A stretch of 64,000 nt of DNA, taken from the IMG/VR virus record IMGVR_UViG_3300029288_001872, positions 96,001 to 160,000 of that record, one strand, 5' to 3'. Under the pieces are notes generated by a model. That model had not been told where the DNA came from. It worked only from the letters and a program-made list of their open reading frames with translations, and searched no databases. Of the stretch, positions 19,703 to 61,264 are shown in pieces. Made by a program: the position numbers and the translations under genes. The number at the start of each line of letters is the position of its first letter. Position 1 is the stretch's first letter. This DNA is from a virus (taxonomy: Duplodnaviria > Caudoviricetes).

Positions 19703-19811
19703 GGTATGGTGAGGTGTGGTGAGGTATGGTATTGTAAGGTTTGATAAGGTGGGGTGTGGTAAGGGTTCTTGGAATAATATAAAATTAAATCTATTATTCC
19801 AAGAACAGTTT
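19703..19811 (+). ncRNA. GGT-NN pentamer array (12 units) with 3' hairpin; candidate gapped guide RNA
   Basis: GGT AT/GGT GA/GGT GT/GGT GA/GGT AT/GGT AT/TGT AA/GGT TT/GAT AA/GGT GG/GGT GT/GGT AA, then a 15-bp stem (19765-19779 with 19792-19806) and AGTTT. Confidence 0.85.
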
Positions 19812-21023
19812 CATTGTTTTAAAAAATTTTAATTTATTAGGATGAAAATGGCTAAAAAATATAAAAGAAAGAAAAGAGAAATTGTAGTTAGTAATGATGG
19901 TTTATTTAGATGTCCTATTTTACCAACCAGACATTTCACATCAACAGAAGTTTGTTTAAATAGAAGAAGTAAATTAAAATTATTTCTAGAATGTGTTGGT
20001 TGTAAAATTGAATTACCAGAGGTGGAAGAATGACAGAAATGATAATTGCATATCTTCTTGCTACAATATGTTTCATATTTGTTTTGTTGCCAACATATCC
20101 TATATTTTTATTGATATTTGCTTTTGGTAAAATGATAGGTGAATTATATGGTGTTAGTTATTGGAAATTTACTAAAGACTGGTTTACTTTTCAATATATA
20201 CCATAATGAGGTGTAAATGAATTTATTTGATAAAGATAATTTTGATATATCAATTGGTGGTGGTTTTTTGAAAATTTCAGTTATTTTTCTACTAAATCTA
20301 CTTTCTGTATAATTGTCTGGTATATTATAAATACATAGCCCAATTGATATAGATGAATTATTGCCAGATGAATTTTTTAATTGGGATGAAATTGGAATAA
20401 AATAAAAATGAGCCATTTATGAGCCATTTAATTGAGAGGAAGTAACTATGCCAAATTTTGATGGAAAACAATATGAATGAATGGTATGAAAAATGAAATC
20501 CAAAGAACTAATAAGACAATTACAAGAGATTGACCCTTCTGGTGAAATGCAAGTTGTTTCTGGTGAATGTGATATTTTCATTCTTGAAACTAACCCTGCT
20601 TATTATGATGGAAAATTAGTAACATTAATTAGAGATAAATCAAAACTTCCTTTTTATGACATAATTGGAATAAAAGTAAAAACAGAAGGAAAGAAAATAA
20701 ATTTAAAATTCATGAGCGCAGAAGATGTCATAATAGAAGATTGGACAGCCAAGGTTGATTTATCTGAATGTCATAGCCATTTTGATTTAGCTATAATGAG
20801 AGAAGAAGGATATAAAATTGCTTTGGAATATGATAAATACCCATGTAAGACTTGTATTCATAAACCTGTTAATTTTTATAAAGAATTATATGAAAAATGT
20901 TTTGATTGTAACCCTCAGAGTGAATTTAAATGGTATGAAAAATAATTTTTAAATTATATCAACTTTTCGTTGACAAGAATAGTAATCTATGATAAACTAT
21001 AGATGTGGATAGGAGAAATTTAA

Positions 21024-21203
21024 ATGGATAAACTTTATGATATGGACCAAACATCAGAATTGTTGAAAGTGTCTAAGTCTACTTTGGCAAGATGGAAGAA
21101 AGAAAGAATGATACCATACATCAAGATAGGTAGAAAGACTTTGTTTGATTATGAAGATTTAATTGAATTGATTGAAAAGAATAAAATTGGTATGGAAGAA
21201 TAA
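21024..21203 (+). CDS. Excisionase-like HTH DNA-binding protein (59 aa, not in ORF track)
   Basis: MDKLYDMDQTSELLKVSKSTLARWKKERMIPYIKIGRKTLFD; RBS and TTGACA-N17-TAAACT promoter upstream. Confidence 0.8.
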   Translation: MDKLYDMDQTSELLKVSKSTLARWKKERMIPYIKIGRKTLFDYEDLIELIEKNKIGMEE

Positions 21204-21754
21204 TGGAAAACCAAGAATTAATGAAATGGCTAACTGGTAAAGAAATATTAAAATTAGTAGAAGAAGACCCATTTGATATGTCAAGTCATTTAGATAAAAT
21301 TTCAATTGACGAAGATTTATCTGATTTTAAAAAAGCAGCATTAGAAGAATGGGAAGGATTGATGGGTACTTTTAGAAAATATGGTGATCTTAAAGCACCA
21401 TATATGTCCAAAAAGAAATTTATAGAAATGATGCTTCTTTACCATTTGAAGCCACAAAATTTTAATGGTTGAAAAAACCACAGAGTGATGTTTCTGGCCT
21501 CTGAAACATTGATGAATAGTGAGTTTTAGAAGGCTAATTTTGAAAAGACATATAAAACCATTAGTTTTTATAGTTTGAAGTTGAATAAAAACAAATTTTA
21601 TAATATTATCAAATAGTTATTGAATTTATGTAACGCTTTAGAAAATAAAAATATTCAACCTGAAATTTAATGACACTTTCTTGGCGCAAAACAGGTACTT
21701 AGGTCATATATTGTTGGAATAAAAAAACTAAATATAAAATGAGGAAATTATTTT

Positions 21755-22741
21755 ATGGTTAAATGTCCAGAAAGCATTGAGGAATTACAAGAATTAGAAA
21801 GATTATTACCTCTTTGTAAAAAAACTTTATATGAAACTGCTCAAGCAAAACTAGAGAGTGGTGCTGCTTCTAGCATTAGAGATGCTGCACGACAAATAGG
21901 TGAAGAGACAGGACGCTCACCGGGAGTTATACGAGTTGCAATTCAAAGAGAGGAACGCGAGCGCATGGCAACAATGTTGCCACCTTGTGAAACAGAGTTA
22001 CAAGGTGATGAAAAACACCCACCTCAACCCATAACAGTTTCTCAACTTTGTAAAGAAACACTAAAAGATGGCGAAACAGAAGGTGATGAAAAAATCTGTC
22101 TGTGGTGTAAAGATTACGATTATGAAAAAGAAGTGTGTTGGCGCTTTAAATGTGATATGTGGGCACAAAGTCTTGGTTGTGATAATTGGAAACACATTGA
22201 AGATGACGAAGAAGAAGACCAAGAGGATGCCAAAGAATCTAAACCATCTATTTGTTCATTAATGACTGGCGATCAAGAATCTTACACACCAGAAAAATAT
22301 ATTGAAGCAGCAAGATTAACAATGGGGAGTATAGATTTAGACCCAGCATCCAACGAATTCGCCCAAAAAACAGTTAAAGCCACCACCTACTACACCAAAG
22401 AAGAAAATGGGTTAGATAAAAACTGGGATGGAAATATTTTTCTTAATCCACCTTATAGTCATCCAGATATAAAACACTTCGTAGATAAATTACTTTCTGA
22501 ATTAAAACCAAATCAACAAGCAGTCTTATTAACAAACAATAATACTGATACAAACTTTTTTCATAATGCAGCAAGAAAAGCATCAGTAGTTTGTTTTACA
22601 AAAGGAAGAATAAATTTTAACAAATTAGACGGAAGCACATCAAGTCCTACTAATGGACAAGTATTCTTTTATTTTGGTGAAAATACAGATGAGTTTATTA
22701 AAAACTTTTCTGAATTTGGTTTAATGATGGTTGTTATATGA
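21755..22741 (+). CDS. DNA N6-adenine methyltransferase (phage Dam type) with N-terminal extension
   Basis: YTP, IDLDPAS, FLNPPYS, GRINF. Confidence 0.88.
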   Translation: MVKCPESIEELQELERLLPLCKKTLYETAQAKLESGAASSIRDAARQIGEETGRSPGVIRVAIQREERERMATMLPPCETELQGDEKHPPQPITVSQLCKETLKDGETEGDEKICLWCKDYDYEKEVCWRFKCDMWAQSLGCDNWKHIEDDEEEDQEDAKESKPSICSLMTGDQESYTPEKYIEAARLTMGSIDLDPASNEFAQKTVKATTYYTKEENGLDKNWDGNIFLNPPYSHPDIKHFVDKLLSELKPNQQAVLLTNNNTDTNFFHNAARKASVVCFTKGRINFNKLDGSTSSPTNGQVFFYFGENTDEFIKNFSEFGLMMVVI

Positions 22742-59703: not shown

Positions 59704-60370
59704 GGCAGGCGTGACGACACAAGTTCAGATAGGGAGAGATGCGTTGGGGTGAGTCTTGGACTGTTAAGGCAGGTAAGACATGGCAAGTAAGACATGGCAA
59801 GTTGCAACCAGATATGTTATGGCGGTTTAAGTTATGGTTCGGCAGGCTATGCTAGTCGGGCTGAGGCTGGTTGAGACCCGTTAGGTTATGGCAGGTGTGA
59901 CATGACAAGTGATATACGATTAGTTGAGTTAGGTTTTGGTTGATCGTGTTATGGTTTGGCAGGCCAAGAGTGATGAGATATGTCTTGGTAGGTTAAATTA
60001 TGGCGGGGAGTATCATGACACGGCAGGTATGACGAGACGCCACGAGAGAAGACAAGGAGTGTTGCTGTGCGACTTAACAAGGCAGGCAATTCCTCCTCTT
60101 GGCTAGTCGGGGCTTGGCAGGCGTGTTGAGACTTTACAAGTTGAGTGTAATGAGTTAAGTTCTGTCACGATAGGGTTAGGCAAAGCAGGTACGACGACAC
60201 AAGTTATGGTAAGTTCTGGGTGTTACAATGTGTTGGGTTCAGGCAAGGGTGGCAGGCTATGCTAGTCAGGTTGAGATTAGTTGAGATGATTTCTGGCGAG
60301 TTAAGACATAGCAGGTAGGATGAGTTACGTCCTGATAAGGTTTGTTCTGTCCTGATTTGTCAAGGCAGGC
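59704..60370 (+). repeat. Array 1: 11 units of degenerate (GNN-NN)n pentamers delimited by (G/A)GCAGG
   Basis: Delimiters at 59704, 59768, 59841, 59890, 59958, 60022, 60081, 60116, 60184, 60251, 60310, 60364; unit lengths 4+5n or within a small indel of it. Confidence 0.9.
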
Positions 60371-60401
60371 AAGATAAATAATTAACCACAAGGAGAACTA
60401 A

Positions 60402-60890
60402 ATGATGGTAAAGAAACATTTGGATGAGTTGAACCAAATTATGGAAGAAAATGGTGGATTACTTCGAGCGGAAGATGTTGTTGAATTCGCCAAAAATCCT
60501 AAGACAACTTTGCATAATGCGTTTGAGTGGGATGATAAGAAGGCTTCTTATAAATGGAGGTTATTTCAAGCCAATCAACTCATCAGAGTTGCAGTTACTA
60601 TTCTCCCAAGAGAAAACCAAGAACCCATTATGGTTCGGCCTTTCGTCAGTTTGAAAGAAGACAGATATAATGGTGGAGGTTATCGTTCCACACTGGAAGT
60701 AATGGAAAGTCCAATTCTCAGAAAAACGCTATTGGATGAAGCTAAAGAGGATATGCAAACTTTCATGGATAAATACAAATCTTTGGAAGAACTTGCGGAA
60801 GTCTTTGTTGCAATGGAACCTTTAATTGTTCCACCACCCACTAAAGGACAAAGAAAGTATAAAAGGGTTGAACAACAATTATCAGCTTGA
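60402..60890 (+). CDS. Conserved phage protein embedded between the two arrays
   Basis: LRAEDVVEFAKNPKTTLHNAFEWDD...WRLFQANQLI; RBS AAGGAG. Confidence 0.7.
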   Translation: MMVKKHLDELNQIMEENGGLLRAEDVVEFAKNPKTTLHNAFEWDDKKASYKWRLFQANQLIRVAVTILPRENQEPIMVRPFVSLKEDRYNGGGYRSTLEVMESPILRKTLLDEAKEDMQTFMDKYKSLEELAEVFVAMEPLIVPPPTKGQRKYKRVEQQLSA

Positions 60891-60900
60891 TGTTTTATAT

Positions 60901-61264
60901 GGCAGGTATGGCACGTTTCGATTTGGTAGGACATGGTGTGTTTGGTCGCATTCTGGTACTTCAAGGCAGGTGTAACAAAGACGAGTCGAGATGAGTTCGG
61001 TTGTGGTGAGTTTTAATATGGAAAGATACGTTGAGGTTCGATACGGCAGGTAAGACAAGATAAGACAAGGAGTGGTGCTACTTGCCCCGATTTGTTAGGT
61101 TGAGGAGTTATACGGCAGGTCAGACGTGTCCGGTTGAGACAAGACATGGTGGGATATGACACGGTTTGTCGGGTTGAGATAAGCAAGGCATGGCAGGCGC
61201 GGCAGGTTGAGGCATGGCGCAATGTGACGTGGTGCGCTGGGGCAAGACAAGAAGAGACATAGCA
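60901..61264 (+). repeat. Array 2: pentamer units delimited by GGCAGG
   Basis: Delimiters at 60901, 60965, 61045, 61114, 61192, 61201 and a terminal AGCA at 61261. Confidence 0.9.

Follow-up and report, generated by a model that had tools for sequence, protein, structure and literature searches.

Solo guide cassettes beside the genes they match in an uncultured phage, and the distribution of their mismatches to self

The solo cassettes

VIPR, described in 2026 preprints, combines a small Cas7-like protein, Vipr, with vrRNAs that carry 9-16 GGY-NN repeats and a structured 3' tail (10.64898/2026.04.26.720920; 10.64898/2026.04.26.720927). There is one Vipr protomer per GGY repeat, and the exposed NN dinucleotide pairs with two of every three bases on one strand of double-stranded DNA (dsDNA) (10.64898/2026.04.26.720920; 10.64898/2026.04.26.720927), the skipped third base usually being the wobble position of a codon (10.64898/2026.04.26.720920). 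The Vipr-vrRNA filament represses transcription, and its natural targets are competing phages and satellites (10.64898/2026.04.26.720920). Here we describe candidate vrRNAs in a window of 64,000 nucleotides (nt), the whole stretch of DNA that was analysed, which covers positions 96001-160000 of a 189,632-nt uncultured phage genome. Strict (GGTNN)n tracts were found in the window at 19703-19762 and 40845-40924, with 23 pattern matches where 0.05 were expected. Nine such solo cassettes (R1-R9), all on the + strand, are present genome-wide. R3 and R4, the two in the window, start 20 nt past the end of a DnaG-type primase gene and 20 nt past the end of a sliding-clamp gene, respectively. A sister phage (G001; complete in IMG/VR, 187,988 nt, syntenic, approximately 80-90% nt identity) has cassettes of its own, which are numbered with an S. 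The features around R3 and R4 are the following:

18762-19682, + strand: DnaG-type primase gene (phrog_47 DNA primase, 1.1e-38; Toprim_2)
19587-19622, + strand: R3 self site in the primase gene, codons VSTEIINLNGVK; units 1-3 mismatched, units 4-12 perfect
19703-19762, + strand: repeat tract of the candidate solo vrRNA R3; 10 variable GGT-NN units and 2 constant units (GT, AA)
19765-19806, + strand: R3 3' tail; 15-bp hairpin followed by ACAGTTT, terminator-like
20999-21027, + strand: second R3 self site, 18/20 over the 10 variable units; covers the transcription start site (TSS) region, ribosome-binding site (RBS) and ATG of a helix-turn-helix-like open reading frame (ORF) at 21024-21203
39844-40824, + strand: sliding-clamp (processivity factor) gene (phrog_947, 4.3e-22)
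40738-40767, + strand: clamp-gene site matched by the sister guide S1 (18/20, 9/10 units perfect)
40789-40824, + strand: R4 self site, the last 11 codons and stop of the clamp gene; self match 18/24, sister allele 21/24 and 12/12 at the amino acid (aa) level
40811-40838, + strand: promoter-like site (a consensus match only) ending 6 nt ahead of the R4 tract
40845-40924, + strand: repeat tract of the candidate solo vrRNA R4; 12 variable units and 4 constant units (AA GT AA GA)
40927-40954, + strand: R4 tail hairpin followed by ACAGTTTT; G.U pair on the + strand, compensatory change in the sister cassette

The solo cassettes are about 150 nt in size and share one layout, in which 10-17 variable GGU-NN units and 2-4 constant ones are preceded by a -10-like box and followed by GGG and a terminator-like hairpin. 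The tracts of R3 and R4 each close with GGG, a strong hairpin and ACAGTTT, and their 12 and 16 strict-GGT units fall within the repeat number of published vrRNAs. Among ten cassettes the tail hairpins measure 11-16 bp, and their structure is kept although the sequence differs. The last 2-4 units of the solo tracts are constant (AA GT AA GA and similar) and never pair with the targets, so the guides differ in length from the count given in the original prediction, which had been made from the window alone. An Rfam scan placed no family over the arrays, its matches being three tRNAs and HEARO only. The HEARO RNA, of the IscB-associated omega RNA family, lies at 63808-64000 (96.8 bits, cut by the window end) and represents a second RNA-guided element of the phage.

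The vipr locus

A gp32-like gene and a RecA/UvsX-like gene enclose, in this order, a 219-aa ORF, array 1, a 162-aa ORF and array 2:

58992-59651, + strand: vipr gene, predicted to encode a 219-aa Cas7-like RAMP (AlphaFold model, Foldseek)
59700-60380, + strand: predicted vrRNA array 1; about 11 GGCA-delimited units with degenerate G-led triplets
60402-60890, + strand: 162-aa ORF, candidate vap accessory gene (phrog_15946, function unknown; no Pfam family)
60899-61264, + strand: predicted vrRNA array 2, 5 units; the units at 60970-61044, 61049-61113 and 61118-61182 are read against recA
61288-62388, + strand: RecA/UvsX-like gene; self sites at 61360-61404, 61939-61980 and 62113-62151, site matched by sister guide S2 at 62203-62259

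The AlphaFold model of the 219-aa protein (pLDDT 86.8, pTM 0.80) gave 39 Foldseek matches at E <= 0.001, all of them CRISPR RAMPs, with Cmr4, Csm3 and type VII Cas7 at the top (prob 1.00). The G-loop motif G-x-G-x-G-R-P is kept in 32 Vipr homologues, and the family comprises 6,954 homologues. Judged by this model, the protein has the predicted build of a Vipr, namely a small single-RRM RAMP with a glycine-rich loop and a thumb. A PDB sequence search with it returned no match. The closest named homologue among 50,697 phage records searched with tblastn belongs to Cyanophage Cy-LDV1 (hypothetical protein, 58.6% identity), with weaker matches in Gordonia phages; SUSP1 was not among the matches in these records. 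The degenerate arrays of G-led pentamers are real at 59700-60380 and 60899-61264, and no targets were found for array 1.

The vipr locus (58917-61324, about 2.4 kb) is absent at the corresponding position of the sister phage (G001 81482-81525) and has a GC content of 0.41 against a backbone of approximately 0.32. The sister phage carries three other, distant Vipr-like genes (G001 83123-83653, 126575-127141 and about 87092), and the present genome only the 219-aa one.

Reading code of the guides

When the NN bases were joined into a contiguous guide, the best matches (17/24 and 21/32) were at chance level and the guide matched nothing. Reading NN against codon positions 1 and 2, so that a 5-nt guide period faces a 3-nt gene period, reproduced the alignments of the original prediction. 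A gapped scan by total score over all units, constant tail included, was not significant alone, its scores of 19/24 and 21/32 staying below the null maxima of 20 and 24, and the signal emerges only with run length, with the variable units alone or with the sister genome. The one-skip targets in the sister phage are all in frame with the skipped base on the wobble position, as in published VIPR targeting. A TRAP-like periodic protein-binding attenuator and G-quadruplex DNA were considered as well and dropped when the arrays proved to fit the gapped code and the VIPR papers. In what can be tested from sequence and from the protein model, the arrays, the protein and the code agree with VIPR, and binding and repression are predicted for this phage.

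Self-mismatches along the guides

The original prediction had proposed that a 5'-proximal seed tells self from non-self, on the ground that all five decodable guides of the window mismatch the self gene within their first three units. The alignments were reproduced, and each of the five guides does differ from self somewhere in units 1-3, in about the places given there. Written as matched bases per unit (0-2), the five alignments read as follows:

R3 (primase) against 19587-19622: 1 0 0, then nine perfect units
R4 (clamp) against 40789-40824: 1 2 2 1 1 2 2 2 2 2 0 1
recA unit 60970 against 61360: 0 1 2 2 0 2 2 2 2 1 1 1 1 0 2
recA unit 61049 against 62113: 2 2 0 2 2 1 0 2 2 2 2 1 0
recA unit 61118 against 61939: 2 2 1 2 2 2, then an indel, out of register

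Nowhere else in the genome does R3 have a perfect run of nine units; its second-best run is 6. R4 is mismatched at units 4, 5, 11 and 12 as well as at unit 1. The alignment of unit 61049 is weak: it is not significant at the nucleotide level, and shuffled guides give about 4 equal matches per genome.

The mismatched units number 3-8 per window guide. Given these counts, all five guides would show a mismatch somewhere in units 1-3 with a probability of 0.43. The pattern is thus expected by chance, since in four of the five guides 5-8 units are mismatched, over the full length of the guide. Only the primase guide R3 has its mismatches confined to the 5' end, and it is this guide that produced the apparent 5' pattern. 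We then enlarged the table to 10 guide/self pairs from the two phages (R1, R3, R4, R5, R6, the three recA units, S1, S2 and S8, with the indel unit excluded), in which 3-10 of 10-19 units are mismatched in the self alleles. Mismatched units were distributed evenly, with 21/50 in the 5' third, 18/43 in the middle third and 21/43 in the 3' third. The mean relative mismatch position was 0.507, against a permutation null of 0.500 +/- 0.029 (P = 0.59). Unit 1 was mismatched in 7/10 pairs, which is an excess in the direction of a 5' seed that does not reach significance (P = 0.09).

A model in which units 1-3 decide binding and a single 5' mismatch spares self is therefore not supported by the tabulation, and we regard it as very unlikely. 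The original prediction had itself named uniform mismatch positions as an outcome that would refute it. The model is consistent with the five window guides, and with R3 in particular. Against it stand, besides the chance probability and the uniform positions, three guides that match self perfectly in units 1-2 or 1-3 (R6, S8 and unit 61049), two of which, R6 and 61049, still have a self match below 70%. Published structures point the same way: by cryo-EM, dsDNA engagement starts at subunits 8-12 beside the 3' tail and pseudoknot, the R-loop extends 3' to 5', and one complete class lacks only the 5'-most repeat (10.64898/2026.04.26.720927). The VIPR preprints report no position-specific mismatch or seed test, and the October preprint on solo or orphan vrRNAs explicitly applies no seed (10.64898/2026.10.15.759431).

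The same structural work raises the opposite case, that a 3'-proximal nucleation zone acts as the seed, with the greatest weight on the variable units closest to the tail, since the published dsDNA intermediates always resolve subunits 8-12 by the 3' pseudoknot (10.64898/2026.04.26.720927). The self-mismatches are not enriched at the 3' end, however; the 3'-most 2-4 units are constant in this family and stay unpaired with the best targets, and in R3 it is the nine 3' units that match self without a flaw. We consider a 3' seed unlikely, if less so than a 5' one. As far as the data show, self and non-self are set apart by the total match and not by its position.

Matches between the two sister phages

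Five guides matched the sister genome at sites that are each unique there, with scores reached by 0/200 shuffled guides. R1 matched 24/24 NN bases (a perfect 12/12 units) in the orthologue of its own upstream glycosyltransferase gene, and R4 matched the sister clamp gene at 21/24, with 12/12 agreement at the aa level, stop included. R6 matched 27/32 in the upstream sugar epimerase gene, and the array 2 units 60970 and 61118 matched the sister recA gene at 25/30 and 23/26, respectively. In the reverse direction, the sister guide S1, of the clamp cassette, matched the clamp gene of the present phage at 40738-40767 (18/20), S2 its recA gene at 62203-62259 (31/38) and S8 one of its small ORFs (23/26). 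Overall, NN match amounted to 82-100% for sister-phage alleles and 63-79% for self alleles, the exception being S8 with 85% to self; no self match of 80% NN or above has been reported for VIPR guides (10.64898/2026.04.26.720920). As a pattern of sequence matches, these data support the view that the guides are aimed at the relative's alleles, reciprocally between the two phages. Searches for clamp and primase homologues yielded only 2-3 close relatives, none of which is a perfect target of R3 or R4.

The recA genes of the two phages are approximately 68% nt identical, and their flanking genes 80-90%; recA is targeted from both sides and may be a hotspot of the arms race.

A different use of some solo guides would be the regulation of the phage's own neighbour genes, for instance as a timed shut-off, with no rival involved. 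R3 is one candidate: beyond its nine consecutive units in the primase gene, it has an 18/20 match, a score reached by 1% of shuffled guides, where the ORF at 21024-21203 has its TSS, RBS and ATG, and a near-consensus promoter-like TTGACA-17-TAAACT (20970-20998) directly precedes this site. S8 likewise matches the start of its own downstream ORF at 22/26. Some guides, R3 among them, may bind self DNA. Most guides, though, match the sister allele clearly better than self, and at the aa level guide and self differ by conservative or synonymous changes (I/V, Leu TTR/CTN, stop TAx/TGA), as fits a real foreign allele, while a regulator has no reason for an imperfect match. We consider own-gene regulation improbable. 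The second R3 self site is identical in the sister phage and may be self-regulatory or a second target.

Adjacency, divergence and linkage

The statement in the original prediction that guides sit beside the gene they match was strongly confirmed, far beyond chance. For R3, R4, R5 and R6, the genome-wide best gapped or aa-level match is in frame in the immediately upstream gene. The distance from guide to self site is 6-310 nt for the solo cassettes and 390-1,060 nt for the recA units. The description of these neighbours as essential genes proved too narrow, because other solo guides adjoin sugar-nucleotide and glycosyltransferase genes. Seven solo cassettes lie at genome positions 185027-189632 and 1-12151 among NAD-epimerase, NTP-transferase, dTDP-sugar epimerase, GHMP kinase and glycosyltransferase genes, and this cluster may be a module for the modification of DNA or surface sugars that is under VIPR conflict.

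Proximity could also have a passive origin, in which guides were copied locally from the adjacent gene and then decayed, with no allele targeting. All 10 guide/self pairs are indeed same-sense and within about 1.1 kb of the guide. Decay would not, however, yield a perfect 12/12 or 82-90% matches to sister alleles, nor reciprocal targeting, and no process is known that turns NNx codons into GGY-NN pentamers; we consider this origin extremely unlikely. Guides of this sense would pair with the template strand in all ten cases, which is improbable by chance (about 0.002), and published VIPR targets lie on both strands (10.64898/2026.04.26.720920).

The cassettes vary in presence between relatives. 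The clamp cassette is missing in the locus L166, where the clamp stop codon is followed directly by the RBS of the next gene, and L236 and L237 have no primase cassette. The sister phage also lacks the primase cassette, together with R1, R6 and R7, and the present phage lacks S8. The gene segments beside the cassettes diverge sharply: the clamp proteins of the two phages are 96.3% identical in their first 296 residues and 60% in the final 30 (Fisher P = 2.6e-8), and in the R1 and primase genes the stretch between target site and cassette has 42-78% nt identity, down from approximately 90-100%. Next to a cassette common to both phages (R5 = S4), the gene end is 98% identical. Because the segment by the cassette is so diverged, the guide and the mismatched gene end appear to behave as one haplotype block, a reading that the identity profiles support as a pattern. 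The original prediction had further held that tight linkage keeps guide and resistant allele together; the block itself stands, and selection for linkage is an inference. Such linkage would be favoured if a recombinant with the guide and without the mismatched allele targeted itself.

The block structure recalls the free-standing homing endonucleases of T4-like phages, and the solo cassettes may be RNA-guided drive elements that are their counterpart. A Vipr filament on the sensitive allele of a co-infecting relative would then stall replication or transcription, and recombinational repair from the guide-bearing genome would copy the cassette and the adjacent mismatched gene end into the rival. 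If true, this would explain why the guide lies within tens to hundreds of bases of the target's homologous site, and why divergence begins at the target site and runs to the cassette. We put it forward tentatively, as a possibility that is more likely wrong than right. The T4-like elements (seg, mob; marker exclusion) are similar in that a selfish element lies by the gene whose foreign allele it recognizes, the resident allele is resistant, and the element and its flanking diverged segment are inherited together. They differ from the present cassettes, in which recognition would be RNA-guided and no nuclease was identified in the locus, the likeness consisting in adjacency, presence or absence, and the diverged block only.

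Discussion

Taken together, the elements described here are probably vrRNAs of a VIPR system with one vipr gene, two flanking staggered arrays and nine solo cassettes, whose guides match sister alleles and spare self through how many units mismatch it. When phages co-infect, the guide would silence or block the rival's allele. We hold this reading with good confidence, and several points weigh against it. The vrRNA 5' ends were placed from -10-like boxes only, and a search of sequencing runs turned up no RNA run with this phage. The nine 3' units of R3 pair perfectly with the self primase gene, and S8 matches its own downstream ORF at 85% NN. The primase, the clamp and RecA are diffusible proteins, so that silencing the rival's copy may not harm the rival by itself. 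The only Vipr found in this genome adjoins arrays with degenerate triplets and may not be the protein that loads the strict-GGU solo guides. The positional test comprises ten pairs from two related genomes, with R5 equal to S4, a small sample in which a modest positional effect could be hidden. Finally, near-self neighbours are rare outside this lineage: at p <= 0.02 they were found for 7/176 arrays (3.5 expected) and for 3/32, the 176 GGY-NN arrays being drawn from 118 IMG/VR loci. Scans for the tail motif, which returned 6 loci in viral contigs and 59 in metagenome contigs, added one new near-self case (L229). In other viral contigs, the IMG/VR loci L005, L009, L010 and L020, a fixed spacer-like tail separates the GGT-NN tracts of long CRISPR-like series (13 tracts in L020), and these series are diverse VIPR array architectures.

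The present system shares with published VIPR (10.64898/2026.04.26.720920; 10.64898/2026.04.26.720927) the small Cas7-like RAMP beside non-coding arrays, the GGY-NN pentamers, the structured 3' tail, the wobble-aligned one-base-skip code, targets in competing phages and self matches below the 80% NN threshold. It differs in its 2-4 constant 3'-most units and in the arrays by vipr, which have degenerate G-led triplets and GGCA delimiters (the staggered type). The solo cassettes end in a simple predicted hairpin and a U-run, whereas the SUSP1 vrRNA ends in a pseudoknot, and the tblastn search detected no sequence similarity to the SUSP1 Vipr. Compared with Cascade, the Class 1 CRISPR complex whose Cas7 backbone works with a seed, the RAMP filament on a guide RNA and the periodic base flipping by the thumb are the same; here, in contrast, pairing is gapped at 5:3 instead of 6:6, there is no protospacer adjacent motif and no repeat-spacer array, and no seed-like positional pattern of self-mismatches was found.

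The solo or orphan vrRNAs of the SUSP1 family (10.64898/2026.10.15.759431) are likewise stand-alone, with wobble-aligned targets in relatives and self scores below non-self scores, read there as autoimmunity avoidance. Those orphans occupy a former VIPR locus, and their targets are vipr, vrRNAs, satellites or REP decoys (10.64898/2026.10.15.759431). Here, in contrast, nine cassettes are dispersed over 190 kb, each by the phage's diverged copy of the sister-matched gene (primase, clamp, recA, sugar-nucleotide genes), with reciprocal targeting and target-localized divergence. VIPR, solo vrRNAs and self scores below non-self scores are thus already published, with other targets and placements. 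The arrangement of a guide beside an immune allele, the reciprocal targeting and the target-localized divergence are not mentioned in the VIPR preprints.

The two phages would illustrate clearly how near-identical phages deploy VIPR guides against each other in nature: the cassettes are dispersed, each beside the phage's own escape allele, and divergence peaks sharply at the very codons that are targeted. Their naturally matched and mismatched target pairs could be used to gauge the mismatch tolerance of VIPR, by number as well as by position, and the arrangement as a whole offers a view, concrete enough to be tested, of arms races between alleles of core replication genes.

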